Shown here: piece after piece, positions 423-29,037 of the stretch | Layout: the number at the start of each line of letters is the position of its first letter | Numbering within the stretch: position 1 is the first letter of the stretch | Source: a virus | UHGV virus genome: UHGV-0253090 | DNA: 30,200 bases | Reading direction: 5' to 3' (one strand) | The notes under the pieces: generated by a model | Told to the model about the DNA's origin: nothing | Databases searched by the model: none | Seen by the model: only the letters and a program-made list of their open reading frames with translations | Position numbers and translations under genes: made by a program

Positions 423-453
423 ATCGCTTCAATTGGCTCTAGTTAACTCTGGT

Positions 454-12438: not shown

Positions 12439-12611
12439 GAATACCTCGCCGTGATGAATACACGGCAAGGCTACTGAGTCGCGCCCTGCGATTCGCTAAT
12501 GTGCTGTTGTGTCAGTGATAAGCCATCCGGGACTGATGGCGGAGGATGCGCATCGTCGGGAAACTGATGCCGACATGTGACTCCTCTAATCACTATTCAG
12601 GACTCCTGACA
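12439..12611. promoter_or_regulatory. Divergent late promoter region (expected Ogr-dependent promoters for P-Q and O-N-M-L operons)
   Basis: Position between divergently transcribed P and O, as in P2. No promoter motif could be confidently identified by eye. Confidence 0.35.
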
Positions 12612-13466
12612 ATGGCAAAAAAAGTCTCAAAATTCTTTCGTATCGGCGTTGAGGGTGACACCTGTGACGGGCGTGTCATCAGTGCGCAGGATATTCAGGA
12701 AATGGCGGAAACCTTTGACCCGCGAGTCTATGGTTGCCGCATTAACCTGGAACATCTGCGCGGCATCCTGCCTGACGGTATTTTTAAGCGTTATGGCGAT
12801 GTGGCCGAACTGAAGGCCGAAAAGATTGACGATGATTCGGCGCTGAAAGGCAAATGGGCGCTGTTTGCGAAAATCACCCCGACCGATGACCTTATCGCGA
12901 TGAACAAGGCCGCGCAGAAGGTCTATACCTCAATGGAAATTCAGCCGAACTTTGCCAATACCGGCAAATGTTATCTGGTGGGTCTGGCCGTCACCGATGA
13001 CCCGGCAAGCCTCGGCACGGAATACCTGGAATTCTGCCGCACGGCAAAACACAACCCCCTGAACCGCTTCAAATTAAGCCCTGAAAACCTGATTTCAGTG
13101 GCAACGCCCGTTGAGCTGGAATTTGAAGACCTGCCTGAAACCGTGTTCACCGCTCTGACCGAAAAGGTGAAATCCATTTTTGGCCGCAAACAGGCCAGCG
13201 ATGACGCCCGTCTGAATGACGTGCATGAAGCGGTGACCGCTGTCGCTGAACATGTGCAGGAAAAACTGAGCGCCACTGAGCAGCGCCTCGCTGAGATGGA
13301 AACTGCCTTTTCCGCTCTTAAGCAGGAGGTGACTGACAGGGCGGATGAAACCAGTCAGGCATTCAGCCGCCTGAAAAACAGTCTCGACAACACCGAAAGT
13401 CTGACCCAGCAGCGCCGCAGCAAGGCCACCGGCGGTGGCGGTGACGCCCTGATGACGAACTGCTGA
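12612..13466 (+). CDS. O: Capsid scaffolding protein (P2 gpO-like)
   Basis: 284 aa from MAKKVSKFFRIGVEGDT (P2 gpO is 284 aa). AGGA SD. The ORF track start at 12546 is an upstream alternative. Confidence 0.9.
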   Translation: MAKKVSKFFRIGVEGDTCDGRVISAQDIQEMAETFDPRVYGCRINLEHLRGILPDGIFKRYGDVAELKAEKIDDDSALKGKWALFAKITPTDDLIAMNKAAQKVYTSMEIQPNFANTGKCYLVGLAVTDDPASLGTEYLEFCRTAKHNPLNRFKLSPENLISVATPVELEFEDLPETVFTALTEKVKSIFGRKQASDDARLNDVHEAVTAVAEHVQEKLSATEQRLAEMETAFSALKQEVTDRADETSQAFSRLKNSLDNTESLTQQRRSKATGGGGDALMTNC

Positions 13467-13524
13467 CCGGCGTCAGCCAGTCCGGGAAAACCTTCACGAT
13501 TAACCCTTAATTTCAGGAAAAACT

Positions 13525-14598
13525 ATGCGCCAGGAAACCCGCTTTAAATTTAATGCCTACCTGTCCCGTGTTGCCGAACTGAACGGCATCGACGCCGGTG
13601 ATGTGTCGAAAAAATTCACCGTTGAACCGTCGGTCACCCAGACCCTGATGAACACCATGCAGGAGTCCTCTGACTTTCTGACCCGCATCAACATTGTGCC
13701 GGTCAGCGAAATGAAAGGGGAAAAAATTGGTATTGGTGTCACCGGCTCCATCGCCAGCACCACCGACACCGCCGGTGGCACCGAGCGTCAGCCGAAGGAC
13801 TTCTCGAAGCTGGCGTCAAACAAGTACGAATGCGACCAGATTAACTTCGATTTTTATATCCGCTACAAAACGCTGGACCTGTGGGCGCGTTATCAGGATT
13901 TCCAGCTCCGTGTCCGTAACGCCATTATCAAACGCCAGTCCCTTGATTTAATCATGGCCGGTTTTAACGGCGTGAGGCGTGCCGAAACCTCTGACCGCAG
14001 CAGTAACCCGATGCTGCAGGATGTGGCGGTCGGCTGGCTGCAGAAATACCGCAATGAAGCCCCGGCGCGCGTGATGAGCAAGGTTACTGACGAGGAAGGT
14101 CACACGACCTCTGAGGTCATCCGCGTGGGTAAGGGCGGTGATTATGCCAGCCTCGATGCACTGGTGATGGATGCGACCAACAACCTGATTGAACCGTGGT
14201 ATCAGGAAGACCCGGACCTTGTGGTGATTGTGGGACGTCAGCTACTGGCGGACAAGTATTTCCCCATCGTTAACAAGGAGCAGGATAACAGCGAAATGCT
14301 GGCCGCTGACGTCATCATCAGCCAGAAACGCATCGGTAACCTGCCGGCGGTACGCGTCCCGTACTTCCCGGCGGATGCGATGCTCATCACGAAGCTGGAA
14401 AACCTGTCCATCTACTACATGGATGACAGCCATCGCCGCGTGATTGAGGAAAACCCGAAACTCGACCGCGTGGAGAACTACGAGTCAATGAACATTGATT
14501 ACGTGGTGGAAGACTACGCCGCCGGTTGTCTGGTGGAAAAAATTAAGGTCGGTGATTTCTCCACACCGGCTAAAGCGACCGCAGAGCCGGGAGCGTAA
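13525..14598 (+). CDS. N: Major capsid protein (P2 gpN-like)
   Basis: 357 aa, same length as P2 gpN. Position after O. Confidence 0.9.
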   Translation: MRQETRFKFNAYLSRVAELNGIDAGDVSKKFTVEPSVTQTLMNTMQESSDFLTRINIVPVSEMKGEKIGIGVTGSIASTTDTAGGTERQPKDFSKLASNKYECDQINFDFYIRYKTLDLWARYQDFQLRVRNAIIKRQSLDLIMAGFNGVRRAETSDRSSNPMLQDVAVGWLQKYRNEAPARVMSKVTDEEGHTTSEVIRVGKGGDYASLDALVMDATNNLIEPWYQEDPDLVVIVGRQLLADKYFPIVNKEQDNSEMLAADVIISQKRIGNLPAVRVPYFPADAMLITKLENLSIYYMDDSHRRVIEENPKLDRVENYESMNIDYVVEDYAAGCLVEKIKVGDFSTPAKATAEPGA

Positions 14599-14601
14599 CC
14601 G

Positions 14602-15345
14602 ATGACGAGTCCCGCACAGCGCCACATGATGCGGGTCTCGGCAGCGATGACCGCGCAGCGGGAAGCCGCCCCGCTGCGACATGCAACTGTCTATGAGCAG
14701 ATGCTGGTCAAGCTGGCCGCAGACCAGCGCACACTGAAAGCGATTTATTCAAAAGAGCTGAAGGCCGCGAAAAAACGCGAACTGCTGCCGTTCTGGTTGC
14801 CGTGGGTGAACGGCGTGCTGGAGCAGGGCAAAGGTGCACAGGATGACATTCTGATGACGGTCATGCTGTGGCGTCTGGATACCGGCGATATTGCCGGTGC
14901 GCTGGAGATTGCCCGTTATGCCCTGAAGTACGGTCTGACCATGCCGGGTAAACACCGCCGCACCCCGCCGTACATGTTCACCGAGGAGGTGGCGCTCGCG
15001 GCCATGCGTGCTCACGCTGCCGGTGAGTCTGTGGATACCCGCCTGCTGACGGAGACCCTTGAACTGACCGCCACGGCTGACATGCCTGATGAAGTGCGCG
15101 CAAAGCTGCACAAAATCACCGGTCTGTTTCTGCGTGACGGTGGTGATGCCGCCGGTGCGCTGGCTCACCTGCAACGTGCGACACAGCTCGACTGTCAGGC
15201 AGGCGTCAAAAAAGAGATTGAACGACTGGAGCGGGAGCTGAAACCGAAGCCGGAGCCGCAGCCCAAAGCGGCCACCCGTACCCCGCGTAAGACCCGGAGC
15301 GTGACACCGGCAAAACGTGGACGCCCGAAAAAGAAAGCCAGTTAA
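14602..15345 (+). CDS. M: Terminase small / endonuclease subunit (P2 gpM-like)
   Basis: 247 aa, same length as P2 gpM. Basic C-terminal tail. Confidence 0.88.
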   Translation: MTSPAQRHMMRVSAAMTAQREAAPLRHATVYEQMLVKLAADQRTLKAIYSKELKAAKKRELLPFWLPWVNGVLEQGKGAQDDILMTVMLWRLDTGDIAGALEIARYALKYGLTMPGKHRRTPPYMFTEEVALAAMRAHAAGESVDTRLLTETLELTATADMPDEVRAKLHKITGLFLRDGGDAAGALAHLQRATQLDCQAGVKKEIERLERELKPKPEPQPKAATRTPRKTRSVTPAKRGRPKKKAS

Positions 15346-15444
15346 CAACCGAATGCGCCCCGCGCCAGGGCGGCACGCCGGTCAGTGAGGGTGAATCACC
15401 TGACGCTGTACCGGCGTCCACCGCCCGACTTTTCAGAGGTAGTC

Positions 15445-15954
15445 ATGATGACGCTGATTATTCCGCGAAAGGAGGCTCCCGTGTCCGGTGAGGGTACGGT
15501 GGTCATCCCGCAACCGGCAGGCGACGAGCCGGTGATTAAAAACACGTTCTTTTTTCCCGATATCGACCCGAAGCGCGTCCGGGAACGTATGCGCCTTGAG
15601 CAGACCGTCGCCCCCGCCCGTCTGCGTGAGGCCATCAAGTCAGGCATGGCGGAGACGAATGCGGAGCTGTACGAGTACCGCGAACAGAAAATTGCCGCCG
15701 GTTTTACGCGTCTGGCGGACGTTCCGGCGGACGACATCGACGGTGAAAGCATCAAAGTTTTTTACTACGAGCGCGCCGTGTGTGCGATGGCGACCGCGTC
15801 GCTTTATGAGCGTTATCGCGGCGTGGATGCCAGTGCGAAAGGCGACAAGAAGGCTGACAGCATTGACAGCACCATTGATGAACTGTGGCGGGATATGCGC
15901 TGGGCGGTGGCGCGTATCCAGGACAAGCCGCGCTGCATCGTGAGTCAAATCTGA
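15445..15954 (+). CDS. L: Head completion / stabilization protein (P2 gpL-like)
   Basis: About 169 aa from MMTLIIPRKEAPVSGEG, with GAGG SD. The ORF track start at 15385 is an upstream extension. Confidence 0.85.
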   Translation: MMTLIIPRKEAPVSGEGTVVIPQPAGDEPVIKNTFFFPDIDPKRVRERMRLEQTVAPARLREAIKSGMAETNAELYEYREQKIAAGFTRLADVPADDIDGESIKVFYYERAVCAMATASLYERYRGVDASAKGDKKADSIDSTIDELWRDMRWAVARIQDKPRCIVSQI

Positions 15955-16157
15955 TGAAGACCTTTGCGCTACAGGGCGACACGCTCGACGCCATTTGTGT
16001 CCGGTATTACGGGCGCACTGAGGGCGTGGTCGAGGCCGTGCTCGCCGCAAATCCGGGACTGGCTGAACTGGGCGCGGTGCTGCCGCACGGCACCGCCGTC
16101 GAACTGCCCGACGTTCAGACCGCGCCCGTGGCTGAAACTGTCAATCTGTGGGAGTAA
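15954..16157 (+). CDS. X: Tail protein X (P2 gpX-like)
   Basis: 67 aa from MKTFALQGDTLDAICVRYYG. ATGA overlap with L. Confidence 0.8.
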   Translation: MKTFALQGDTLDAICVRYYGRTEGVVEAVLAANPGLAELGAVLPHGTAVELPDVQTAPVAETVNLWE

Positions 16158-16160
16158 CGC

Positions 16161-16442
16161 ATGACAGCAGAAGAAAAAAGCGTCCTGTCGCTTTTCATGA
16201 TTGGGGTGCTGATTGTTGTCGGCAAGGTGCTTGCCGGTGGTGAACCCATCACCCCGCGTCTGTTTATCGGGCGCATGTTGCTCGGTGGTTTTGTCTCGAT
16301 GGTTGCCGGTGTTGTTCTGGTGCAGTTTCCTGACCTGTCACTGCCTGCGGTGTGCGGCATCGGCTCCATGCTGGGTATCGCCGGTTATCAGGTGATTGAG
16401 ATTGCCATTCAGCGCCGCTTTAAGGGCAGGGGGAAACCGTAA
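16161..16442 (+). CDS. Y: Holin (P2 gpY-like)
   Basis: 93 aa with hydrophobic transmembrane segments (VLSLFMIGVLIVVGKVLAGG...; FVSMVAGVVLVQFP). First gene of the lysis cassette. Confidence 0.85.
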   Translation: MTAEEKSVLSLFMIGVLIVVGKVLAGGEPITPRLFIGRMLLGGFVSMVAGVVLVQFPDLSLPAVCGIGSMLGIAGYQVIEIAIQRRFKGRGKP

Positions 16443-16939
16443 TGCCGGTAATCAACACGCATCAGAATATCGCTGCCTTTCTCGACATGCTGGCCGTGTC
16501 CGAAGGGACGGCGAATCATCCGCTGACGAAAAACCGGGGCTATGACGTGATAGTCACCGGACTGGACGGGAAGCCGGAAATCTTCACCGACTACAGTGAC
16601 CACCCGTTCGCACATGGCCGACCGGCGAAGGTGTTTAACCGTCGCGGTGAAAAATCCACGGCCTCCGGTCGCTATCAGCAGCTTTACCTGTTCTGGCCGC
16701 ATTACCGCAAACAGCTTGCCCTGCCGGATTTCAGTCCGTTGTCACAGGACAGACTCGCCATTCAGTTGATCCGCGAACGCGGTGCGCTGGATGACATCCG
16801 GGCGGGGCGCATTGAGCGCGCCATTTCACGCTGTCGCAATATCTGGGCGTCCCTGCCGGGTGCCGGTTACGGTCAGCGTGAGCATTCACTGGAAAAACTG
16901 GTCACCGTCTGGCGTACCGCCGGCGGCGTACCGGCTTAA
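16442..16939 (+). CDS. K: Endolysin (P2 gpK-like lysozyme)
   Basis: 165 aa, same length as P2 gpK. Overlaps the holin stop. Confidence 0.88.
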   Translation: MPVINTHQNIAAFLDMLAVSEGTANHPLTKNRGYDVIVTGLDGKPEIFTDYSDHPFAHGRPAKVFNRRGEKSTASGRYQQLYLFWPHYRKQLALPDFSPLSQDRLAIQLIRERGALDDIRAGRIERAISRCRNIWASLPGAGYGQREHSLEKLVTVWRTAGGVPA

Positions 16940-16953
16940 ACGGAGTAAACACC

Positions 16954-17379
16954 ATGAAGAAATTATCCCTTTCACTGACGCTGAACGTGTCGCTGGCGCT
17001 GATGCTGGCACTGTCCCTGATTTACCCGCAGAGCGTGGCCGTTAATTTTGTCGCCGCCTGGGCGATTCTGGCGACGGTTATCTGTGTGGTTGCCGGTGGT
17101 GTCGGCGTGTATGCCACGGAGTATGTACTGGAACGCTACGGGCGGGAGCTGCCGCCGGAATCGCTGGCCGTGAAGATTGTCACGTCGCTGTTTTTGCAGC
17201 CGGTGCCGTGGCGCAGACGGGCGGCGGCTCTGGTAGTGATGGTGGCGACGTTTATCTCGCTGGTCGCTGCCGGGTGGATTTTTACTGCGCTGATTTATCT
17301 CGTGGCGTCGCTGTTTTTCCGGCTGATACGCACGGCCTGCCGTCAGCGTCTTGAGGGGCGGGAACTATGTCAAAGCTGA
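16954..17379 (+). CDS. lysA: Lysis timing protein LysA (membrane protein)
   Basis: 141 aa, several hydrophobic helices. Same size and position as P2 LysA. Confidence 0.8.
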   Translation: MKKLSLSLTLNVSLALMLALSLIYPQSVAVNFVAAWAILATVICVVAGGVGVYATEYVLERYGRELPPESLAVKIVTSLFLQPVPWRRRAAALVVMVATFISLVAAGWIFTALIYLVASLFFRLIRTACRQRLEGRELCQS

Positions 17380-17792
17380 TGATTGCACTGGTCGTGTTGT
17401 TATCGCTGGCGGTGGCGGGGCTGTTTCTGGCGAAGCATGAAAACGCCAGCCTGCGCGCCTCACTGGACAGGGCGAACAACGTCGCCAGTGAACAGCAGGC
17501 GACTATCTCCATGCTGAAAAATCAGCTTCATGTTGCCCTCTCAAGGGCAGACAAAAACGAGCTGGCGCAGGTGGCACTGCGTCAGGAACTGGAGAACGCC
17601 GCGAAGCGTGAAGCACAGCGCGAGAAAACCATCACGAGGTTACTCAATGAAAACGAAGATTTTCGCCGCTGGTATGGTGCTGACCTGCCTGATGCTGTGC
17701 GCCGGTTGCACCAGCGCCCCGCATGCACCGACGCCAGTGATTGTCGCCAACGCCTGCCCGAAAGTGAGCCTTTGCCCGATGCCGGGCAGTGA
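17367..17792 (+). CDS. lysB: LysB, Rz-like inner-membrane spanin
   Basis: 141 aa with an N-terminal transmembrane segment (LMIALVVLLSLAVAGLFLA) followed by a coiled-coil-like region. Same size as P2 LysB. Confidence 0.8.
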   Translation: MSKLMIALVVLLSLAVAGLFLAKHENASLRASLDRANNVASEQQATISMLKNQLHVALSRADKNELAQVALRQELENAAKREAQREKTITRLLNENEDFRRWYGADLPDAVRRLHQRPACTDASDCRQRLPESEPLPDAGQ

Positions 17793-17937
17793 TCCGCAGA
17801 CGAACGGCGATTTAAGTGCCGATATCCGGCAGCTTGAGAACGCGCTGGCACGCTGTGCCAGCCAGGTAAAAATGATTAAACACTGTCAGGACGAAAACGA
17901 TGCTCAAACCCGACAGCCTGCGCAGGGCGCTGACTGA
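17647..17937 (+). CDS. lysC: LysC, Rz1-like outer-membrane lipoprotein spanin, embedded out of frame in lysB
   Basis: 96 aa from MKTKIFAAGMVLTCLMLCAGC, with a lipobox (LCAGC). Located in the +1 frame inside and beyond lysB. Confidence 0.75.
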   Translation: MKTKIFAAGMVLTCLMLCAGCTSAPHAPTPVIVANACPKVSLCPMPGSDPQTNGDLSADIRQLENALARCASQVKMIKHCQDENDAQTRQPAQGAD

Positions 17938-18367
17938 TGCCGTCACGGTGCTGAAAACCAGTCCAGAGATGCTTCGGATATTCGTGGATAACGGGAGTAT
18001 TGCCTCCACGCTGGCGACGTCGCTGTCGTTCGAAAAGCGTTACACGCTCAATGTGATTGTGACCGACTTTACCGGTGATTTTGACCTGCTCATCGTGCCG
18101 GTGCTGGCGTGGCTGCGGGAAAATCAGCCCGACATCATGACCACCGACGAAGGCCAGAAAAAGGGCTTCACGTTTTATGCAGACATCAACAATGACAGCA
18201 GCTTTGATATCAGCATCAGTCTGATGCTGACCGAGCGCACGCTGGTCAGCGAGGTTGATGGTGCGCTGCATGTGAAGAATATCCCGGAACCCCCGCCGCC
18301 GGAGCCGGTCACCCGCCCGGTGGAGCTTTATATCAATGGCGAACTGGTGAGCAAGTGGGATGAATGA
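17900..18367 (+). CDS. R: Tail completion protein R
   Basis: 155 aa, MLKPDSLRRALTDAVTVLK..., same length as P2 gpR. Confidence 0.88.
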   Translation: MLKPDSLRRALTDAVTVLKTSPEMLRIFVDNGSIASTLATSLSFEKRYTLNVIVTDFTGDFDLLIVPVLAWLRENQPDIMTTDEGQKKGFTFYADINNDSSFDISISLMLTERTLVSEVDGALHVKNIPEPPPPEPVTRPVELYINGELVSKWDE

Positions 18368-18812
18368 GTTTAAGCGTTTTGAAGACCGGCTGACCGGACT
18401 GATTGAATCGCTGTCACCGTCAGGGCGTCGGCGACTGAGTGCCGAACTGGCGAAACGTCTGCGTCAGAGTCAGCAGCGTCGGGTGATGGCACAGAAAGCC
18501 CCGGACGGCACACCCTACGCGCCACGTCAGCAGCAGAGCGCCAGAAAAAAGACCGGTCGCGTTAAGCGAAAAATGTTTGCGAAACTTATCACCAGTCGTT
18601 TTTTGCATATCCGCGCCAGCCCTGAACAGGCATCAATGGAGTTTTACGGCGGAAAGTCACCGAAAATCGCCAGTGTGCATCAGTTTGGTCTGTCGGAAGA
18701 AAACCGGAAGGACGGTAAGAAAATTGATTATCCGGCGCGTCCTCTGCTCGGCTTTACCGGTGAGGATGTGCAGATGATTGAAGAGATTATCCTGGCTCAC
18801 CTCGACCGTTAG
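18360..18812 (+). CDS. S: Tail completion protein S
   Basis: 150 aa, same length as P2 gpS. Overlaps the R stop. Confidence 0.88.
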   Translation: MNEFKRFEDRLTGLIESLSPSGRRRLSAELAKRLRQSQQRRVMAQKAPDGTPYAPRQQQSARKKTGRVKRKMFAKLITSRFLHIRASPEQASMEFYGGKSPKIASVHQFGLSEENRKDGKKIDYPARPLLGFTGEDVQMIEEIILAHLDR

Positions 18813-18844
18813 TTGTGCCATTCCCGACACCTCATCGTCACATT

Positions 18845-18866
18845 GCCGCCGGTATGACCCGGCGGC
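18845..18866 (+). other. Perfect 8-bp stem-loop between S and the V-like ORF
   Basis: GCCGCCGG (18845-18852), loop TATGAC, CCGGCGGC (18859-18866). Lies 13 nt upstream of ATG 18879. No clear U-tract. Confidence 0.4.
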
Positions 18867-18878
18867 ATCCTTCCCGTT

Positions 18879-19919
18879 ATGAACACTCTCGCAAATATTC
18901 AGGAACTCGCGCGCGCACTGCGCAACATGATCCGCACCGGCATTATCGTCGAAACCGACCTTAACGCCGGTCGCTGCCGTGTGCAGACCGGCGGCATGTG
19001 CACCGACTGGCTTCAGTGGCTGACCCATCGCGCCGGACGTTCGCGCACATGGTGGGCACCTTCCGTGGGGGAACAGGTGCTGATTCTGGCCGTGGGCGGT
19101 GAACTCGACACGGCGTTCGTTCTGCCGGGGATTTATTCCGGCGATACCCTGACGCTGGAATCCGAGCCTCTCGTCAAACTGCTGGAGGAAAATGCTTATC
19201 GTGAGCTTATCTGGCGTCAGCGTGTGAATGAGGCTGCACGGGCGGTGATGCTGGCCTGTGCCGCCGGTAATGACCTTGATGTGATTGGTGCCAATTACAA
19301 CACCACGCGCCTGACTATCACCCCGGCAGATGATTCGACCATCCCGCCGACACCGGCAGTGATGGAGTCTGACACCGATTATCGTCTGCGTATTCAGCAG
19401 GCGTTTGAAGGTTTAAGCGTCGCCGGGTCGGTGGGTGCCTATCAGTATCATGGCCGCAGTGCCGACGGGCGTGTCGCGGATATTTCTGTCACCAGTCCGT
19501 CTCCGGCCTGCGTCACTATCTCTGTGCTGTCACGTGAAAATAACGGTGTCGCATCCGAAGACCTGCTGGCCGTGGTGCGTAACGCCCTGAATGGCGAGGA
19601 CGTCAGGCCGGTGGCCGACCGCGTGACCGTGCAGTCTGCCGCCATCGTTGAATACCAGATAAACGCCACGCTTTACCTTTACCCTGGTCCCGAAAGCGAA
19701 CCCATCCGCGCTGCCGCCGTGAAAAAACTGGAAGCGTATATCACGGCACAGCACCGGCTGGGGCGCGATATCCGTCTGTCTGCCATTTATGCCGCTTTGC
19801 ATGTGGAAGGTGTGCAGCGTGTCGAACTGGCTGCACCGCTGGCTGACATCGTGCTCAACAGTACGCAGGCGTCTTTCTGTACCGAATACAGCGTCGTGAC
19901 CGGAGGCTCGGATGAGTGA
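18879..19919 (+). CDS. Baseplate ORF that appears to be an in-frame fusion of the gpV N-terminus (about 90 aa) to the gpJ C-terminal region; no separate gpW gene
   Basis: 346 aa. The first 90 aa or so (MNTLANIQELARALRNMIRTGIIVETDLNAGRCRV...LPGIYSGD) match my recall of the P2 spike gpV N-terminus. The rest (TLTLESEPLVKLLEENAYRELIWRQRV...) resembles baseplate J. The canonical V(211 aa)-W(115 aa)-J(302 aa) set is absent between S and I. Confidence 0.6.
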   Translation: MNTLANIQELARALRNMIRTGIIVETDLNAGRCRVQTGGMCTDWLQWLTHRAGRSRTWWAPSVGEQVLILAVGGELDTAFVLPGIYSGDTLTLESEPLVKLLEENAYRELIWRQRVNEAARAVMLACAAGNDLDVIGANYNTTRLTITPADDSTIPPTPAVMESDTDYRLRIQQAFEGLSVAGSVGAYQYHGRSADGRVADISVTSPSPACVTISVLSRENNGVASEDLLAVVRNALNGEDVRPVADRVTVQSAAIVEYQINATLYLYPGPESEPIRAAAVKKLEAYITAQHRLGRDIRLSAIYAALHVEGVQRVELAAPLADIVLNSTQASFCTEYSVVTGGSDE

Positions 19920-20523
19920 TTCGCGACTGCTGCCGACCGGCTCATCACTGCTTGAAGTTGCCGCCGCAAAAGCCTGTGCGGAAATTGAAAAAACGCCGGT
20001 CAGTATTCGTGAGCTGTGGAACCCGGACACCTGCCCGGCAAATCTGCTGCCGTGGCTGGCGTGGTCATTTTCGGTTGACCGCTGGGATGATAAATGGCCG
20101 GAAGCGACAAAACGCGCTGTTATCCGCGATGCGTATTTCATTCACTGCCATAAGGGCACTATAGGCGCAATCCGGCGTGTGGTGGAGCCGCTCGGCTATC
20201 TGATTGAGGTGAGGGAGTGGTGGCAGCTCAACGAGGAGCCGGGGACGTTCCGTATCGTTGTTGGCGTGCTTGAGCAGGGTATTACCGAAGAAATGTATCA
20301 GGAGCTGGAGCGCCTAGTTGCTGATGCAAAACCGGCAAGCCGCCATCTGACGGGACTGGCTATCAGTTTAAGTACAACCGGCAACATTTTTGCCGGTGCG
20401 GGATGCTATCACGGTGACGCCCTGACGGTTTATCCCTACACCCCGGAGGCCATTATTGTCGGAGGGGATTATTTCCCGGCCTCGGCCATTCATTTAATTG
20501 ATAACCTGAGAGTAAACGCATGA
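19912..20523 (+). CDS. I: Baseplate protein I (P2 gpI-like)
   Basis: 203 aa. GGAGG SD. ATGA-type overlaps with both flanking genes. Position before the tail fibre. Confidence 0.8.
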
Positions 20524-21704
20524 CAGTGAAATACTACGCCATTCTGACTAATCAGGGCGCAGCACGGCTGGCTAACGCGACGATGCTCGGCAGTAAGCTG
20601 AATCTGACGCAAATGGCCGTTGGTGATGCGAATGGTGTCTTGCCGACACCAGACCCGGCACAGACAAAACTGATTAACCAGAAACGCATCGCGCCGCTGA
20701 ATCTTCTGAGTGTTGACCCGAACAACCAGAGCCAGATTATTGCGGAGCAAATCATCCCTGAGAACGAGGGCGGATTCTGGATCCGTGAGATTGGGCTTTA
20801 TGATGATGAAGGCGTACTCATTGCGGTGGCAAACTGCCCGGAAACGTACAAACCGCAGTTGCAGGAAGGAAGCGGTCGTACCCAGACTATCCGCATGATT
20901 CTGGTTGTCTCGAATACCGAAGCCATCACGCTGAAAATCGACCCGTCGGTGGTACTGGCGACCCGTAAATACGTGGATGATGAAGTCCTGGAATTAAGGC
21001 TGTATGTGGATGACCAGATGAGAAACCACATTGCCGCACAGGATCCTCATACCCAGTATGCGCAGAAACATAATCCGACATTTACCGGAGAACCAAAAGC
21101 GCCGACGCCTGCCGCAGGAAATAACACCACGCGGATTGCGACCACTGCGTTTGTTCAGGCCGCTATTACCGCTCTGATTAACGGTGCGCCAGCCACGCTG
21201 GACACACTGAAAGAAATTGCCGCAGCCATTAACAATGACCCGAAATTCAGTACCACCATTAACAATGCGCTGTCAGGTAAGCAGCCACTGGATGAGACGC
21301 TGACTCATTTGAGTGGAAAGGATGTAGCTGGTCTTCTCGCATACCTTGGTTTGGGAGAAGCGGCAAAACGGAATGTGGGCACAGGAGATAATCAGATACC
21401 GGATATGGGAGCATTCGCTTCTGGTTCGGGATGGTTCAGGCTACCAGGTGGATATATTGTTCAGTTTGGCACTTTTTCAGGAAACACGACCCGCTTTATC
21501 AGTGGACACTTCCCTATACCATTCCCTAATCGGCCGATGGTTTCAGTCAGTGTTATGTCTGATGCCGTTCAGTCAGACCCGTCGAATCCTGCCCCGCAGG
21601 TTTTGTCTGTAAATTTTGAACATATCAGTAATTCAGCGTGGCGTATGGCAACCAGTGATATCTCATATCAATACAGATTCAGTTATATTTCGATAGGACG
21701 GTAG
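20520..21704 (+). CDS. H: Tail fibre protein: constant N-terminal part plus variable C-terminal tip (current orientation of the invertible segment)
   Basis: 394 aa. The N-terminal region resembles Mu S/P1 S-type tail-fibre constant domains. The recombination site at 21334-21359 lies inside the reading frame, at the LGLGE codons. Confidence 0.8.
21334..21359. repeat. 26-bp DNA-invertase crossover site (left, within the tail-fibre gene)
   Basis: TTCTCGCATACCTTGGTTTGGGAGAA, an imperfect palindrome of the hix/gix/cix type. Shares TTGGTTTGGGAGAA with the reverse complement of the site at 23165-23190. Confidence 0.7.
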
Positions 21705-21706
21705 AA

Positions 21707-22147
21707 ATGCAGAAATATATTTTCAGTGCCGATAAAAATGCGTTTTTCCCTGTGGAGCTTAAAATCGCTTATCAGGAATCCGGCGAATGGCCCGGTGATG
21801 GAATCGAAATTGACGACACTGTTGCCGCCGAATTTATGAAGGAAGCACCAGAAGGAAAATACAGAGGCGTCATCGACGGAATGCCTGCATGGATTGATAT
21901 TCCACCGCCAACTCATGAGGAACAAATTGCCGCAGCCGAACTGGAAAAGCAGCAATTGATTAATCAGGTCAACGAATACATAAACAGTAAGCAATGGCCT
22001 GGTAAAGCGGCGATTGGTCGCCTGAAAGGTGAGGAACTGGCGCAATATAATTTGTGGCTGGATTATCTGGACACACTGGAACTGGTCGATACTTCCGGTG
22101 CGCCAGATATTGAATGGCCTACGCCTCCGGCAGTTCAGGCCAGATGA
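21707..22147 (+). CDS. Tail fibre assembly protein (Tfa, G/U-like), active-orientation copy
   Basis: 146 aa. Directly follows the tail-fibre stop. Typical tail-fibre assembly size and position. Confidence 0.75.
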   Translation: MQKYIFSADKNAFFPVELKIAYQESGEWPGDGIEIDDTVAAEFMKEAPEGKYRGVIDGMPAWIDIPPPTHEEQIAAAELEKQQLINQVNEYINSKQWPGKAAIGRLKGEELAQYNLWLDYLDTLELVDTSGAPDIEWPTPPAVQAR

Positions 22148-22712
22148 CATCCGGCGCGGTGCTGGTATCTGTTACCGTCACCGCGTCAATGTAATCCAGC
22201 ACGGCGTTAAGTCGGGTTGTTTCTGCCTGCGTCAGCTTCCGTCCGGCCTGTAATTTCAGTTGAATCAGACTGATGGAAGCCATTGCAGCATCAATCAGCG
22301 ACTGGCGCTGTGCTTCTGCCGCGTCTACTGCGGCACTATGCTGTGCCTCAGTATCTGTCACCCATTTCTCACCATCCCATTTATCGTATGGCGTTAACGG
22401 TGAAAGCGTGACATAACCGTCTTTGATGGCACCGATATAATCCACTGTAACAGCTGCGCCATTTTCGATTGAGTAAACAGTCTCATTGCGGTGGTCTTCT
22501 TCATGGCTCCATCCCTTACCCGTAAATACTGCCACTTTCCCCGGAATGTATTCGCCCGGGTCAATACCAGTAGAACAGGCGGGCATACTTACGCCAGTAT
22601 TAATATATTCATCAGACCAGCCCGTATATTCAGACGTTACTGCATCATAATAAAAACAACGCATATCACCCGGCACTGTAGCCAGCCCATTTTCATCAAA
22701 AACAGGTTTCAT
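22119..22712 (-). CDS. Tail fibre assembly protein (alternative copy, inverse orientation)
   Basis: 197 aa on the minus strand inside the invertible segment. Its 3' end overlaps the plus-strand tfa 3' end by 29 bp. Confidence 0.7.
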   Translation of the reverse strand: MKPVFDENGLATVPGDMRCFYYDAVTSEYTGWSDEYINTGVSMPACSTGIDPGEYIPGKVAVFTGKGWSHEEDHRNETVYSIENGAAVTVDYIGAIKDGYVTLSPLTPYDKWDGEKWVTDTEAQHSAAVDAAEAQRQSLIDAAMASISLIQLKLQAGRKLTQAETTRLNAVLDYIDAVTVTDTSTAPDVIWPELPEA

Positions 22713-23190
22713 TATGCAGCCCTCACAATATAATTAAAGGCGATGTTACGTGGACGGTTTTCATTAGCTGTTGGCACGACACGAGAGGCGTCGAATCCAA
22801 GGTCATCGGTTTTGTCTATAGTAGTTGTGTTATTCGGCATTCTCGCTGATCGTGTTCCTGCATCGTAAAAAGCCCCTCTGATTGCATCAAAAGACATACC
22901 GATCCCGCCATCTGCGAATCCCTCAATATTTCTTATTGCATCCCCCTGTGAAGATAATAATTGTCGCCCGGCATCCACTCCACGTCCGTCATCCCAGCCA
23001 CGAATAAATTCACCGCGTAAATCAGGCAATTTATTTGTCGGATAAACCTTTGCCAGTTCCGGGTATTCTTCAGCAGAAAAAGCCGCACCATTGCATTTTA
23101 GCCAGCCTGTTGGCGGAGTGGCGGAAGGCCACGGGACAGGCACACCAACGGGTAATGCCGAACCTTCTCCCAAACCAACGTTTAAGAAAA
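22712..23190 (-). CDS. Alternative tail-fibre C-terminal tip (promoterless; expressed only after inversion fuses it to the constant H region)
   Basis: Minus-strand ORF reading ...LGLGEGSALPVGVPVPWPSATPPTGWLKCNGAAFS.... The LGLGE codons coincide with the crossover site, which preserves frame with H. The ORF track extends to 23218, but that part is junction sequence. Confidence 0.65.
23165..23190. repeat. 26-bp DNA-invertase crossover site (right)
   Basis: TTCTCCCAAACCAACGTTTAAGAAAA. Its reverse complement TTTTCTTAAACGTTGGTTTGGGAGAA is the inverted partner of the 21334-21359 site. Confidence 0.7.
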
Positions 23191-23245
23191 TGCAGAGATA
23201 GCGGCTAACTGGCATCATCTCCGGTTTTTATTCAGGGGATCCGTC

Positions 23246-23839
23246 ATGCTTATTGGCTATGTCCGCGTATCAACAAATGACCAGAACACGGAATTGCAGC
23301 GTAACGCACTGGAGTGTGCAGGATGTGAGCTGATTTTTGAGGACAAAATCAGCGGCACGAAGTCCGACAGACCGGGGCTGAAAAAACTGCTCAGAACATT
23401 ATCGGAAGGTGACACTCTGGTTGTCTGGAAGCTGGACAGGCTGGGGCGTAGTATGCGGCATCTGGTCATTCTGGTTGAGGAACTGCGCGAACGCGGCGTT
23501 AATTTTCGCAGCCTGACGGATGCTATTGATACCAGCACGCCGATGGGGCGTTTTTTCTTTCATGTGATGGGTGCCCTGGCTGAAATGGAGCGAGAACTCA
23601 TTGTCGAGAGGACACGCGCCGGACTGGAAGCGGCCAGAGCCAAAGGTCGTATTGGTGGCAGACGACCGAAACTCACCGCGAGTGAGTGGGAGCAGGCCGG
23701 GCGTTTGCTGGCTGCAGGGGAGTCACGTCAACGCGTGGCACTGATTTTTGATATTGGTCTGTCCACGCTCTATAAAAAATTTCCCTCATCAGCGACAAAG
23801 AATAAATTGTGTCATCCCTTAGCCAACCGGGACAAATAG
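23246..23839 (+). CDS. Serine DNA invertase (Hin/Gin/Cin/Pin family)
   Basis: 197 aa, MLIGYVRVSTNDQNTELQRNALECAGCELIFEDKISGTKSDRPGL...VVWKLDRLGRSMRHL..., nearly co-linear with e14 Pin / Mu Gin including the catalytic Ser in the VRVST motif. AGGGGA SD. Confidence 0.92.
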   Translation: MLIGYVRVSTNDQNTELQRNALECAGCELIFEDKISGTKSDRPGLKKLLRTLSEGDTLVVWKLDRLGRSMRHLVILVEELRERGVNFRSLTDAIDTSTPMGRFFFHVMGALAEMERELIVERTRAGLEAARAKGRIGGRRPKLTASEWEQAGRLLAAGESRQRVALIFDIGLSTLYKKFPSSATKNKLCHPLANRDK

Positions 23840-23898
23840 CCTGACATCTCCGGCACAACTGAAAATATCACTCACCCATTAACCACGGAGTTAAACGG

Positions 23899-25089
23899 AT
23901 GAGTGACTATCATCACGGCGTGCAGGTGCTGGAGATTAACGACGGCACCCGTGTCATTTCCACCGTATCCACGGCCATTGTCGGCATGGTCTGCACGGCC
24001 AGCGATGCGGATGCGGAAACCTTCCCCCTCAATAAACCGGTGCTGATTACCAATGTGCAGAGCGCAATTGCAAAGGCCGGTAAAAAAGGCACGCTGGCGG
24101 CATCGTTGCAGGCTATCGCCGACCAGTCAAAACCGGTCACCGTTGTTGTGCGCGTGGAGGACGGCACCGGCGACGACGAAGAAACGAAGCTCGCGCAGAC
24201 CGTTTCCAATATCATCGGCACCACTGACGAAAACGGTCAGTACACCGGACTGAAAGCCCTGCTGGCGGCAGAGTCGGTAACCGGTGTTAAACCGCGTATT
24301 CTTGGTGTGCCGGGACTGGATACCAAAGAGGTGGCTGTAGCACTGGCATCAGTCTGTCAGAAGCTGCGCGCTTTCGGGTATATCAGCGCATGGGGCTGTA
24401 AGACCATTTCCGAGGTGAAAGCCTACCGCCAGAATTTCAGCCAGCGTGAGCTGATGGTCATCTGGCCGGATTTCCTCGCATGGGATACGGTCACCAGTAC
24501 CACCGCCACCGCGTATGCCACCGCTCGTGCGCTGGGGCTGCGCGCTAAAATCGACCAGGAGCAGGGCTGGCATAAAACGCTGTCCAACGTCGGGGTGAAC
24601 GGTGTTACCGGCATCAGCGCATCTGTATTCTGGGATTTGCAGGAGTCCGGCACCGATGCTGACCTGCTTAACGAGTCAGGCGTCACTACGCTGATTCGCC
24701 GCGACGGTTTCCGCTTCTGGGGTAACCGTACCTGCTCTGATGACCCACTGTTTCTCTTTGAAAACTACACCCGTACCGCGCAGGTGCTGGCCGACACGAT
24801 GGCTGAGGCGCACATGTGGGCGGTGGACAAGCCCATCACCGCAACGCTGATTCGCGACATCGTTGACGGCATCAATGCCAAATTCCGTGAGCTGAAAACA
24901 AACGGCTATATCGTGGATGGCTCATGCTGGTTCAGCGAAGAATCCAACGATGCGGAAACCCTCAAGGCCGGAAAACTGTATATCGACTACGACTATACAC
25001 CGGTGCCTCCTCTCGAAAACCTGACCCTGCGCCAGCGTATTACCGATAAATACCTGGCGAATCTGGTCACCTCGGTTAACAGCAATTAA
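23899..25089 (+). CDS. FI: Tail sheath protein (P2 gpFI-like)
   Basis: 396 aa, same length as P2 FI. Confidence 0.9.
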   Translation: MSDYHHGVQVLEINDGTRVISTVSTAIVGMVCTASDADAETFPLNKPVLITNVQSAIAKAGKKGTLAASLQAIADQSKPVTVVVRVEDGTGDDEETKLAQTVSNIIGTTDENGQYTGLKALLAAESVTGVKPRILGVPGLDTKEVAVALASVCQKLRAFGYISAWGCKTISEVKAYRQNFSQRELMVIWPDFLAWDTVTSTTATAYATARALGLRAKIDQEQGWHKTLSNVGVNGVTGISASVFWDLQESGTDADLLNESGVTTLIRRDGFRFWGNRTCSDDPLFLFENYTRTAQVLADTMAEAHMWAVDKPITATLIRDIVDGINAKFRELKTNGYIVDGSCWFSEESNDAETLKAGKLYIDYDYTPVPPLENLTLRQRITDKYLANLVTSVNSN

Positions 25090-25101
25090 GGAGCCTGACC
25101 G

Positions 25102-25620
25102 ATGGCAATGCCGCGCAAACTCAAGTTAATGAACGTCTTTCTGAACGGCTACAGCTATCAGGGCGTCGCAAAGTCCGTCACGCTGCCAAAACTGACCCGT
25201 AAGCTCGAAAACTATCGCGGTGCGGGGATGAACGGCAGCGCACCGGTAGACCTCGGCCTTGATGACGATGCGCTGTCAATGGAGTGGTCGCTCGGTGGTT
25301 TCCCGGATTCGGTTATCTGGGAACTTTACGCTGCAACTGGTGTGGATGCCGTGCCGATTCGTTTTGCAGGCTCTTACCAGCGTGACGATACCGGCGAAAC
25401 GGTGGCCGTTGAAGTGGTCATGCGTGGACGTCAGAAAGAAATCGACACCGGCGAGGGTAAACAGGGAGAAGACACCGAGTCGAAAATCTCCGTGGTCTGC
25501 ACCTATTTCCGGCTGACGATGGACGGTAAGGAGCTGGTCGAAATTGACACCATCAACATGATTGAGAAGGTGAACGGCGTCGACCGGCTGGAGCAACACC
25601 GCCGCAATATCGGCCTGTGA
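25102..25620 (+). CDS. FII: Tail tube protein (P2 gpFII-like)
   Basis: 172 aa, same length as P2 FII. AAGGAG SD. Confidence 0.9.
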   Translation: MAMPRKLKLMNVFLNGYSYQGVAKSVTLPKLTRKLENYRGAGMNGSAPVDLGLDDDALSMEWSLGGFPDSVIWELYAATGVDAVPIRFAGSYQRDDTGETVAVEVVMRGRQKEIDTGEGKQGEDTESKISVVCTYFRLTMDGKELVEIDTINMIEKVNGVDRLEQHRRNIGL

Positions 25621-25627
25621 TTTTCAT

Positions 25628-25648
25628 CCGGTCAGCCAGGCTGACCGG
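25628..25648 (+). other. Stem-loop between FII and E (possible attenuator / mRNA processing or stability element)
   Basis: Perfect 8-bp stem CCGGTCAG / CTGACCGG with a 5-nt loop, immediately after the FII stop. No strong U-tract. Confidence 0.4.
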
Positions 25649-25675
25649 TAACCCCGATTCAGAAGTGAGAAAACC

Positions 25676-25951
25676 ATGAACAAAGAAAATGTCATTACCC
25701 TGGACAATCCGGTCAAACGTGGTGAGCAGGTTATCGAACAGGTCACGCTGATGAAACCCAATGCCGGGACGCTGCGCGGTGTCAGTCTGGCTGCGGTCGC
25801 GAACTCCGAAGTCGATGCACTGATTAAGGTGCTGCCGCGCATGACGGCACCGATGCTGACCGAGCAGGAAGTCGCCGCGCTGGAACTGCCTGACCTTGTG
25901 GCTCTGGCCGGTAAGGTGGTCGGTTTTTTGTCGCCGAACTCGGTGCAGTGA
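25676..25951 (+). CDS. E: Tail assembly chaperone E (P2 gpE-like)
   Basis: 91 aa, same length as P2 gpE. Ends just after a T TTT TTG slippery heptamer. Confidence 0.85.
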   Translation: MNKENVITLDNPVKRGEQVIEQVTLMKPNAGTLRGVSLAAVANSEVDALIKVLPRMTAPMLTEQEVAALELPDLVALAGKVVGFLSPNSVQ

Positions 25952-26103
25952 CGTTTCCGAAAAATCTCTCGGTCGATGACCTGATGGCGGATGTGGCTGT
26001 GATATTTCACTGGCCGCCATCAGAACTGTATCCCATGAGCCTGACCGAACTCATCACATGGCGCGAAAAGGCGCTCCGGCGAAGCGGAAACACGAATGAG
26101 TAA
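25676..26103 (+). CDS. E+E' tail assembly chaperone produced by programmed -1 ribosomal frameshift at TTTTTTG (25924-25930)
   Basis: My own translation of the -1 frame from the slippery site gives VAELGAVTFPKNLSVDDLMADVAVIFHWPPSELYPMSLTELITWREKALRRSGNTNE, ending at TAA 26101-26103 just inside the T start. Total length about 142 aa, as for P2 E+E'. Confidence 0.75.
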
Positions 26104-28543
26104 CAATGTAAAATTACAGGTATTGCTCAGGGCTGTTGACCAGGCATCCCGCCCGTTTAAATCCATCCGCACAGCGAGCAAATCGCTGTCGGGGGATATC
26201 CGGGAAACACAAAAATCACTGCGCGAGCTGAACGGTCAGGCATCCCGTATTGAGGGATTTCGCAAGACCAGTGCACAGCTCGCCGTGACTGGTCAGGAAC
26301 TGAAAAAAGCCAGACAGGAAGCCGCAGCTCTGGCTGTCCAGTTTAAAAATACTGAACGACCGACAAATGCACAGGCAAAGGCAATGGAAGCCGCGCGTAA
26401 AAATGCGTCTGAGTTACAGGCGAAATATAACAGCCTGAGATTGTCGGTACAGCGCCAGCGTCAGGAATTGAGTCAGGCGGGTATTAATACCCGTAATCTG
26501 GCGCATGATGAACGAGGGCTGAAAAACCGTATCAGTGAAACCACCACACAGCTTAACCGTCAGCGTGATGCGCTGGCGCGTGTCAGTGCGCAACAGGCAA
26601 AACTTAACGCAGTAAAACAGCGTTATCAGGCCGGAAAGGAGCTGGCCGGAAATATGGCCTCAGTGGGCGCTGCCGGTGTGGGGATTGCGGCGGCGGGAAC
26701 GATGGCCGGTGTTAAGCTGCTGATGCCCGGTTATGAGTTTGCGCAGAAAAACTCAGAATTGCAGGCCGTGCTGGGTGTGGCAAAAGACTCCGCCGAAATG
26801 GCCGCGCTCCGCAAACAGGCGCGTCAGCTTGGCGACAATACCGCCGCCTCGGCAGATGATGCAGCCGGTGCGCAGATTATTATTGCGAAAGCCGGTGGGG
26901 ATGTTGATGCCATTCAGGCGGCAACGCCGGTCACGCTGAATATGGCGCTGGCGAACCGTCGCACGATGGAAGAAAACGCCGCCCTGCTGATGGGGATGAA
27001 ATCCGCCTTTCAGCTTTCAAACGATAAGGTCGCTCATATCGGGGATGTTCTCTCCATGACGATGAACAAAACCGCCGCCGATTTTGACGGTATGAGCGAT
27101 GCGCTGACCTATGCCGCACCTGTGGCAAAAAATGCCGGTGTCAGCATTGAAGAAACCGCCGCAATGGTCGGGGCGCTGCATGATGCAAAAATCACAGGCT
27201 CAATGGCGGGGACGGGAAGCCGTGCCGTGTTAAGCCGCCTGCAGGCACCGACGGGAAAAGCATGGGATGCACTCAAAGAGCTTGGAGTGAAAACCTCAGA
27301 CAGCAAGGGAAACACCCGGCCAATATTTACCATTCTGAAAGAAATGCAGGCCAGTTTTGAGAAAAACCGGCTCGGTACTGCCCAGCAGGCTGAATACATG
27401 AAAACTATTTTCGGGGAGGAGGCCAGCTCAGCCGCCGCCGTGCTGATGACTGCCGCCTCAACCGGAAAGCTGGACAAACTGACCGCTGCGTTTAAAGCCT
27501 CAGACGGGAAGACCGCCGAGCTGGTAAATATCATGCAGGACAACCTGGGCGGTGACTTTAAGGAGTTTCAGTCTGCTTATGAGGCGGTGGGGACTGACCT
27601 GTTTGACCAACAGGAAGGCGCACTGCGTAATCTCACGCAGACGGCCACAAAGTATGTGTTAAAACTCGACGGCTGGATCCAGAAAAACAAATCACTGGCG
27701 TCAACCATCGGCCTTATTGTCGGTGGCGCACTGGCGCTTATTGGCATCATCGGTGCAATTGGTCTTGTAGCCTGGCCGGTTATCACCGGCATTAATGCCA
27801 TCATCGCGGCAGCAGGCGCAATGGGGGCAATCTTCACGACGGTTGGCAGTGCTGTTATGACGGCCATCGGGGCGATTAGCTGGCCGGTTGTGGCCGTGGT
27901 GGCCGCCATTGTCGCCGGGGCGTTGCTTATCCGTAAATACTGGGAGCCTGTCAGCGCATTCTTTGGCGGTGTGGTGGAAGGGCTGAAAGCGGCATTTGCG
28001 CCGGTGGGGGAACTGTTCACGCCACTTAAACCGGTTTTTGACTGGCTGGGTGAAAAGTTACAGGCCGCGTGGCAGTGGTTTAAAAACCTGATTGCCCCGG
28101 TTAAAGCCACACAGGACACCCTGAACCGTTGCCGTGACACGGGGGTCATGTTCGGGCAGGCACTGGCTGACGCGCTGATGCTGCCGCTTAATGCGTTCAA
28201 CAAACTGCGCAGCGGTATTGACTGGGTACTGGAAAAACTCGGTGTTATCAACAAAGAGTCAGACACACTTGACCAGACCGCCGCCAGAACTCATGCCGCC
28301 ACGTATGGCACCGGTGGTTATATTCCGGCGACCAGCTCTTATGCAGGTTATCAGGCTTATCAGCCGGTTACGGCACCGGCTGGCCGCTCTTATGTGGACC
28401 AGAGTAAAAACGAATATCACATCAGCCTGACGGGTGGTACTGCGCCGGGGACACAGCTTGACCGCCAGTTACAGGATGCGCTCGAAAAATACGAGCGGGA
28501 TAAACGTGCGCGCGCCCGTGCCAGCATGATGCATGACGGTTAA
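26096..28543 (+). CDS. T: Tail tape measure protein (P2 gpT-like)
   Basis: 815 aa, same length as P2 gpT. Coiled-coil-rich N-terminus and Ala/Gly-rich hydrophobic segments typical of tape measure proteins. Confidence 0.9.
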   Translation: MSNNVKLQVLLRAVDQASRPFKSIRTASKSLSGDIRETQKSLRELNGQASRIEGFRKTSAQLAVTGQELKKARQEAAALAVQFKNTERPTNAQAKAMEAARKNASELQAKYNSLRLSVQRQRQELSQAGINTRNLAHDERGLKNRISETTTQLNRQRDALARVSAQQAKLNAVKQRYQAGKELAGNMASVGAAGVGIAAAGTMAGVKLLMPGYEFAQKNSELQAVLGVAKDSAEMAALRKQARQLGDNTAASADDAAGAQIIIAKAGGDVDAIQAATPVTLNMALANRRTMEENAALLMGMKSAFQLSNDKVAHIGDVLSMTMNKTAADFDGMSDALTYAAPVAKNAGVSIEETAAMVGALHDAKITGSMAGTGSRAVLSRLQAPTGKAWDALKELGVKTSDSKGNTRPIFTILKEMQASFEKNRLGTAQQAEYMKTIFGEEASSAAAVLMTAASTGKLDKLTAAFKASDGKTAELVNIMQDNLGGDFKEFQSAYEAVGTDLFDQQEGALRNLTQTATKYVLKLDGWIQKNKSLASTIGLIVGGALALIGIIGAIGLVAWPVITGINAIIAAAGAMGAIFTTVGSAVMTAIGAISWPVVAVVAAIVAGALLIRKYWEPVSAFFGGVVEGLKAAFAPVGELFTPLKPVFDWLGEKLQAAWQWFKNLIAPVKATQDTLNRCRDTGVMFGQALADALMLPLNAFNKLRSGIDWVLEKLGVINKESDTLDQTAARTHAATYGTGGYIPATSSYAGYQAYQPVTAPAGRSYVDQSKNEYHISLTGGTAPGTQLDRQLQDALEKYERDKRARARASMMHDG

Positions 28544-28557
28544 GGAGGTGACGAAAA

Positions 28558-29037
28558 ATGATGCTCGCGTTAGGTATGTTTGTTTTTATGCGCCAGACGC
28601 TGCCACACCAGACCATGCAGCGTGAATCAGATTATCGCTGGCCGTCAAATTCCCGTATCGGTAAACGGGATGCCTTTCAGTTTCTCGGTGTTGGCGAGGA
28701 AAACATCACGCTTGCCGGTGTGCTTTATCCCGAACTGACCGGCGGCAAGCTGACGATGACCACGCTCAGACTGATGGCAGAGGAAGGCCGGGCGTGGCCG
28801 TTGCTGGATGGCTCCGGCATGATTTACGGCATGTATGTCATCAGCAGGGTGAGTGAAACAGGGAGTATTTTCTTTGCAGACGGCACACCCCGGAAAATTG
28901 ATTTTACGCTGTCGCTCACCCGCGTTGATGAATCACTGGCCGCGCTTTATGGCGATATCGGTAAACAGGCGGAATCGCTCATCGGTAAGGCTGGCAGTAT
29001 GGCGACTAAATTCACGGGTATGACGGGGGTGGGATAA
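28558..29037 (+). CDS. U: Tail protein U (P2 gpU-like)
   Basis: 159 aa, same length as P2 gpU. AGGAGG SD. Confidence 0.88.
   Translation: MMLALGMFVFMRQTLPHQTMQRESDYRWPSNSRIGKRDAFQFLGVGEENITLAGVLYPELTGGKLTMTTLRLMAEEGRAWPLLDGSGMIYGMYVISRVSETGSIFFADGTPRKIDFTLSLTRVDESLAALYGDIGKQAESLIGKAGSMATKFTGMTGVG

Follow-up and report, generated by a model that had tools for sequence, protein, structure and literature searches.

An in-frame deletion joining the baseplate genes V and J in a P2-like Escherichia coli prophage predicted to be tail-defective

In phage P2, each wedge of the baseplate consists of two gpJ and one gpI. The sheath initiator gpW sits at the core of the wedge, where it touches gpJ, gpI, gpX and the first sheath ring, and gpV forms the trimeric, iron-tipped spike beneath the gpD hub (bioRxiv 10.64898/2026.09.14.750843). 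V, W, J and I make up the minimal P2 baseplate, and in contractile systems the loss of a baseplate component blocks the polymerization of both tube and sheath (PMC4604203). Proteins of the gp6-like type touch the gp25-like protein with their N-terminal part (PMC4604203), and the triplex subunits' N-terminal regions form the core bundle, which is the binding place of the sheath initiator (PMC10996793). From these two studies we infer that the N-terminal segment of gpJ would likewise take part in a core bundle and contact the gp25-like protein. In R-type pyocins, the homologous baseplate parts are the spike PA0616, the sheath initiator PA0617 and the triplex proteins PA0618 and PA0619 (PDB 6U5B, 4S37). 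Pyocins are domesticated tails in which all baseplate genes were kept and the head genes were lost.

The locus described here shows the reverse arrangement, with intact head genes and a broken baseplate module. It lies in a 30,200-nt stretch of DNA (UHGV virus genome UHGV-0253090), hereafter called the window. Compared with the intact V-W-J module of Peduovirus members (P2, Wphi, pro483 and a sibling prophage in GCA_030006115.1), the gene order is the same, S-V-(W)-J-I-H, and the retained DNA is 97-98% identical to published P2-like phages and effectively 100% identical to the GCA_030006115.1 sibling. In the P2-like references, the interval comprises V (636 nt), W (348 nt) and J (909 nt). Accordingly sized products were found in six intact relatives: a V protein of 211 aa with the Phage_base_V and Phage_spike domains, a W protein of 115 aa with GPW_gp25 and a J protein of 302 aa. 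In the window, one chimeric ORF replaces the three genes (Table 1).

Different deletions abolishing W were found in two complete E. coli genomes. APEC O78 (NC_020163, locus 1722213-1727755) has lost 509 bp from the 3' end of V to the 5' end of J, out of frame, and its J is annotated as a pseudogene. WCHEC040047 (NZ_CP043295, locus 747907-753685) has lost 273 bp inside W and keeps full V and J genes; this loss is unflagged in the annotation. In both genomes, the breakpoints differ from those of the window and the prophage backbone is a different one. Both also have an additional 786-nt minus-strand gene for a "hypothetical protein" between S and V, which the window does not have.

Table 1. Positions of the features discussed, in window coordinates (window-equivalent coordinates for the sibling prophages)
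Feature	Position	Strand	Basis or remark
int	454-1449	-
SIR2 cargo gene, 864 aa	6541-9132	-	P2 tin/old hotspot between A and Q; SIR2_2 domain at aa 141-261
Gene S	18360-18812	+	Flank of the fusion; Pfam Phage_tail_S
S-V intergenic region	18813-18878	+	Same as in the intact parent L012
V'-'J fusion ORF	18879-19919	+	ORF list, Pfam, 852-bp gap against references and L012
Retained 5' part of V (gpV aa 1-89, OB-fold domain)	18879-19146	+	89/89 identical to reference gpV
Deletion junction, TA dinucleotide	19145-19146	+	Breakpoint scan; TA present at both parental breakpoints
Retained 3' part of J (gpJ aa 46-302, without the N-terminal 45 residues)	19147-19919	+	256/257 identical to reference
Gene I (gpI, triplex partner of gpJ), 203 aa	19912-20523	+	Pfam Tail_P2_I; 100% identical to L012
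Invertible tail-fiber cassette, 1.8 kb, Mu G-segment-like	21334-23190		27-nt imperfect inverted repeats at 21334-21360 and 23164-23190
Invertase gene	23246-23839	+	Resolvase and HTH_7
L017 (SRR9887431), deletion of 12.7 kb	11563-24275		P to FI
L018 (GCA_053132315.1), deletion of 3.0 kb	9941-12924		Q/P/O
L018 (GCA_053132315.1), deletion of 1.0 kb	15927-16937		X/Y/K
L019 (SRR30052581), deletion of 1.0 kb	15927-16937		X/Y/K
L019 (SRR30052581), deletion of 2.5 kb	18397-20914		S to H

The V-J reading frame and its prophage

The ORF list gives the fusion as a single ATG-initiated frame of 346 aa plus stop. Pfam recognized two domains. Phage_base_V (PF04717, OB domain) spans aa 19-86 (E = 4e-20); Baseplate_J spans aa 162-305, and this match is confined to positions 112-254 of the profile, its C-terminal half. 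The V moiety is identical to residues 1-90 of PDB 3QR8 (P2 gpV) and matches PA0616 at E = 2e-12, and the J moiety aligns to residues 39-295 of the R-pyocin triplex protein PA0618 (PDB 6U5B) at E = 8e-91. Of the gpV-type spike, the N-terminal OB-fold domain, by which the spike is docked beneath the gpD hub, is thus kept and residues 90-211 are missing from the window; the C-terminal beta-helical spike/iron-binding apex domain PF18715 (Phage_spike), present in the intact relatives, is absent from the fusion. Similarly, the gpJ-type protein (gp6-like triplex, Baseplate_J) is not full length in the window, which holds only gpJ 46-302. With PADLOC, the fusion protein matched no defense family. Partial V (64-88 aa) and J (217-258 aa) proteins share the 90% cluster of the fusion; they were rejected as further fusions, being contig-end fragments recruited for fitting inside the chimera.

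We then mapped the missing DNA. A megablast search of positions 18300-20600 against 50,697 phage records gave 97-98% identity to P2-like phages, with the 2,301 query bases spread in two pieces over 3,153 bases of the reference, a shortfall of 852 bases. An ungapped left/right comparison against NC_041848 gave the same figure: the reference exceeds the window at V-W-J by exactly 852 bp (284 codons), 1019 of the 1041 retained bases are identical, and there is one best breakpoint, with equal scores at 19144-19146. Lost are gpV 90-211, the whole of gpW (1-115) and gpJ 1-45. None of these segments was found elsewhere in the window by tblastn in six frames (best E = 0.1-0.3, with 0.31 for gpW), and at the DNA level blastn detected neither W nor the C-terminus of V nor the N-terminus of J at any other place in the window. 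Furthermore, GPW_gp25 (PF04965) was absent from the Pfam calls of every called gene on the contigs identical to the window.

These results agree with the preliminary description, which had read the ORF as an in-frame fusion of V and J with no gp25-like W in the interval. Indeed, gpV 1-89 is joined in frame to gpJ 46-302 through the 852-bp deletion, and gpW is gone from the whole window as well. The junction peptide proposed there, GIYSGD/TLTLESE (the slash marks the joint), was also right; its position had to be corrected to 19145/19146-19147, which leaves a V part of 89 aa. The protein is not a full-length homologue of any one baseplate protein accompanied by a W elsewhere, but a chimera in a window devoid of W. 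Judged by these alignments, the 346-aa ORF is a V-J fusion created by one 852-bp deletion, the same that took gpW.

As 852 is divisible by 3, the deletion leaves a V-J chimera and keeps the downstream genes I, H and G in phase. The start of gene I overlaps the stop of the fusion ORF, as the J stop and I start do in intact P2-like phages. As the deletion is in frame and this overlap is kept, I, H and G should be translated normally. On the upstream side, positions 16948-19146, which include the region preceding the fusion, show 0 mismatches to the intact sibling L012 (GCA_030006115.1), and the expression signals of the V operon are therefore as in the intact phage. The S-V intergenic region contains a near-perfect 8-bp GC-rich stem (18842-18864; GCCGCCGG tatgac CCGGCGGC), located 15 nt before the ATG of the fusion and not followed by a T-run. 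Since it is identical in the intact parent, this stem is unrelated to the deletion; it may serve RNA stability or regulation.

The rest of the window follows the canonical P2-like (Peduovirus) order, as seen in the ORF map and the Pfam hits: int, C, cox, B, A, cargo gene, Q, P, O, N, M, L, X, Y and K, then lysA/B/C, R, S, the fusion, I, H, G-type assembly genes, invertase, FI, FII, E, T, U and D. All the other phage genes are of canonical length, in a colinear arrangement with NC_041848 at 96-98% identity, the V-W-J interval being the sole deviation. Except for this lesion, the window is a complete P2-type prophage. The reference NC_041848.1, closest to the tail module of the window, is recorded as "Escherichia phage P2" (O157:H43 T22) and is not the classical P2. 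At the hotspot where the window has its SIR2 gene, it has cdtABC (cytolethal distending toxin). In its annotation, the large terminase is divided between two overlapping CDSs (10013-11398 and 11358-11786), suggesting that a frameshift or sequencing error is present there; P of the window is a single 590-aa ORF.

Window bases 3-422 (minus strand) encode the N terminus of PflA, and in near-identical siblings pflB-focA come after ogr. Since the window starts with PflA coding sequence and the siblings have pflB beyond ogr, the element is integrated, apparently between pflA and pflB of E. coli. This site (window 1-453; L012 14106-14724) differs from the yegQ-side site of the relatives L008-L011 and L013. 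E. coli PflA has about 246 aa. The pflA ORF called beside int has 265 aa, so its frame would seem to continue upstream into att.

Sibling prophages, cargo and age of the lesion

Many E. coli assemblies encode a tape-measure protein identical to that of the window. Among them is L012, an intact sibling with V, W and J products of 211, 115 and 302 aa. It differs from the window by 2 mismatches over positions 16948-30200 (13 kb), and when the 852 bp are removed from it at the mapped position, the window ORF is obtained at 1041 of 1041 bases. The two mismatches and the exact reconstruction show a single event on an otherwise intact backbone, and the deletion is very recent.

To see how far the junction is distributed, two genome sets were searched. 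A 200-bp junction query gave 0 single-piece matches among 5,426 complete E. coli genomes, and a 27-nt pattern gave 0 matches among species-representative genomes, one each for 185,579 species (GTDB). Absent from both sets, the V-J junction is a private, recent allele and not a conserved architecture; it would be private to one clone.

Three further siblings, L017, L018 and L019, differ from the window by 4 SNPs over up to 16 kb, are integrated between pflA and pflB like the window, and share its 864-aa SIR2 cargo; the cargo is present in all retrieved siblings of this type by construction, as it was the query. All three have independent deletions of structural genes (Table 1), and the 1.0-kb X/Y/K deletion is common to L018 and L019. 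Compared with the window, their deletions are bigger or located elsewhere; the lesion of the window is the smallest, and the sole in-frame V-J fusion among them. The lineage shows the ordinary, ongoing decay of a vertically inherited prophage, with the window lesion as its earliest and smallest step.

The SIR2 cargo is presumed to have a defense function. Over its first ~350-380 aa, it is similar to pAgo-associated SIR2 proteins and the PADLOC candidate PDC-S65, in a PADLOC comparison that used coordinates offset by one codon. The remaining ~500 aa are without a recognized domain, and no partner gene adjoins. Records of the identical protein were found in 58 index blocks, and in the places shown it always belongs to the same prophage. 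Cargo of this kind is usual at the P2 hotspot (PMC9122126). The preliminary description had found the retention of an intact defense gene in a defective prophage notable in itself. We do not share this view, the cargo being standard at this hotspot (PMC9122126) and the lesion too recent for SIR2 to have decayed; for the latter reason, the intactness of SIR2 says nothing on selection.

The tail-fiber region contains an invertible cassette with its invertase gene. Flipping swaps the C terminus of the fiber protein H between a form of 394 aa with Gp53-like_C and a form of 430 aa with Collar, together with the matching Caudo_TAP assembly gene (146 aa or 197 aa). Contig L003 is identical to the window except for the flipped 1.8-kb segment, and the SPAdes contig L004 stops precisely at 21360. 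Both orientations occur among the relatives L008-L013 and, together with the flip between window and L003, this indicates that the tail-fiber switch is active.

The preliminary description had further proposed a domesticated, cryptic element. This proposal finds no support in our data. There is one recent lesion, the intact sibling is 2 SNPs away, the other genes have canonical lengths, the tail-fiber segment is still flipping, and nothing points to long-term retention or co-option. None of the signs of age was found either, be it multiple lesions, divergence or conservation of the defective form across strains, and the contigs that carry the junction are 100% identical.

Consequences for the virion

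We consider it very probable that a recent 852-bp deletion by illegitimate recombination, in an otherwise complete P2-like prophage at pflA-pflB, has left this prophage tail-defective on its own. By this reading, the loss of gpV 90-211 would take away the beta-helical, iron-tipped, membrane-piercing spike, and the disappearance of gpW as a whole would deprive every baseplate wedge of the gp25-like sheath initiator at its core. Residues 1-45 of gpJ would correspond to the N-terminal part that builds the triplex core bundle in homologous baseplates. With one essential protein gone and two crippled, the prophage should be unable to make tails unaided. P2 itself responds poorly to induction. Once induced, the element would still be able to excise and replicate, to fill its heads with DNA and to lyse the cell. 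Without nucleation by a baseplate, tube and sheath would not polymerize properly, and the products would be tailless, noninfectious heads. A co-resident or superinfecting P2-like phage could supply V, W and J and thereby restore tails.

A tail defect had also been suggested in the preliminary description, and of the consequences considered it is the best supported, given the known roles of gpV, gpW and gpJ. By analogy with these roles, the prophage almost certainly cannot build its own baseplate without a helper. The V-J chimera itself is most likely a nonfunctional by-product. As the breakpoints lie near domain boundaries (the end of the gpV OB domain and the end of the gpJ N-terminal segment), there is a small chance that it folds and acts.

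The possibility of a helper leads to another reading, in which a second P2-like prophage or a superinfecting phage provides V, W and J in trans, so that the element propagates as what amounts to a helper-dependent phage and the deletion is nearly neutral. Helpers would be available in principle, as P2-like prophages are very frequent and often occur several to a genome: 1,577 of the 5,426 complete E. coli genomes contain P2-like matches, and the number of matching places in each has a median of 2 and reaches 6. Furthermore, the genes for heads, packaging, lysis, tube, sheath and fibers are all intact in the window, and the in-frame deletion spares I, H and G from polarity. However, the carriers are metagenome contigs that give no evidence of a second P2-like prophage, and the restriction of the junction to one clone does not point to horizontal spread. 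The siblings at the same site, moreover, decay by larger deletions, which fits vertical inheritance better than active transmission. Overall, propagation through a helper seems improbable to us.

Very unlikely, in our opinion, is that the chimera is a selected, functional product, possibly a dominant-negative "poison subunit" directed against superinfecting P2-like phages or P4-type satellites. Such a protein would dock on the gpD hub via its gpV OB domain or join wedges via its gpJ body. The fusion is in frame and ends at or near domain boundaries, so both pieces could fold, its upstream expression signals are untouched, and independent W-removing deletions exist in the two other E. coli genomes and in L019. 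However, an in-frame outcome has a 1-in-3 chance, and no shared fusion product recurs, since APEC O78 has an out-of-frame deletion and L019 loses everything from S to H. The allele is found in one clone without sequence divergence and thus gives no sign of selection. Nor is the region a hotspot: small deletions between the query anchors flanking the junction amount to ~0.1% (2 among ~1,700 P2-like copies). We give equally little credit to the extended form of this idea, in which the chimera would act in superinfection exclusion beside the SIR2 cargo, expressed upon transactivation of the late operon, and the recurrent loss of gpW would reflect selection. Were it true, the chimera would block tail assembly of an invading P2-like phage or P4-type satellite.

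Authenticity, origin and meaning of the junction

The exact 346-aa fusion protein is on record on 3 contigs. Two carriers of the junction come from ENA, namely ERZ27318055, a 37.4-kb MEGAHIT contig (k141), and ERZ28529037, a 21.1-kb SPAdes contig with a coverage of about 13x. Over the shared DNA, both are 100% identical to the window except for the flipped 1.8-kb invertible segment. We had to consider that the junction is an assembly or sequencing artifact present in no real DNA molecule, as it is missing from the 5,426 complete E. coli genomes and the 185,579 species-representative genomes, and every carrier is a metagenome or Logan assembly. This is extremely unlikely, however. The same junction was obtained by two different assemblers in two analysis accessions, one of them at about 13x coverage, and its flanks are 100% identical to the prophage of a real isolate. 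A 2-bp overlap without flanking repeats cannot cause a mis-join in a de Bruijn graph; a k-mer graph would need reads that contain the junction. We therefore regard the V-J deletion as real. The identical carrier contigs validate the sequence, but they do not represent independent evolutionary events: they probably stem from one clone and may come from one study.

We finally examined the breakpoints for traces of the mechanism. The parental contexts are GGCGATA/ACCCCG on the left and GCCCGTA/CCCTGA on the right, and their overlap is only the 2-bp TA. Thus, the search for microhomology suggested in the preliminary description yields these two base pairs at a breakpoint placed at 19144-19146. No direct or inverted repeats of at least 9 nt were found within 60 bp of the breakpoints. 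The 8-mer CCCTGACG occurs at the right end and 43 bp inside the left end; the junction does not fall there. The most likely origin of the deletion is illegitimate recombination with 2-bp microhomology, for example by replication slippage or end-joining of a break.

Wild-type invertases of the Hin/Gin family are strongly biased against deletion. An off-target action of the Hin/Gin-type invertase of the prophage on pseudo-sites was rejected as having next to no likelihood: serine recombinases do exchange at a 2-bp core, the junction overlap is exactly 2 bp, and the invertase is intact and active in the lineage (both segment orientations were observed), but the breakpoint 26-mers match the crossover site at only 9/26 and 6/26 positions (background mean 7.1, 95th percentile 11), and the core dinucleotide is TA at the junction, whereas the two sites have TT and GT (top strand).

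Loss-of-function decay of prophages is well known, and the fusion matters little beyond annotation. In annotation, the 346-aa ORF deserves the label of a V'-'J deletion chimera (pseudogene) and not that of a baseplate protein, and the prophage should be scored as tail-defective in calls of completeness or inducibility. The locus offers a cleanly dated example of the first step in prophage decay, an 852-bp illegitimate deletion with 2-bp microhomology and an intact sibling 2 SNPs away. Together with L017, L018 and L019, the window forms a natural decay series for one prophage lineage, which could help to study the rates and mechanisms of prophage inactivation.
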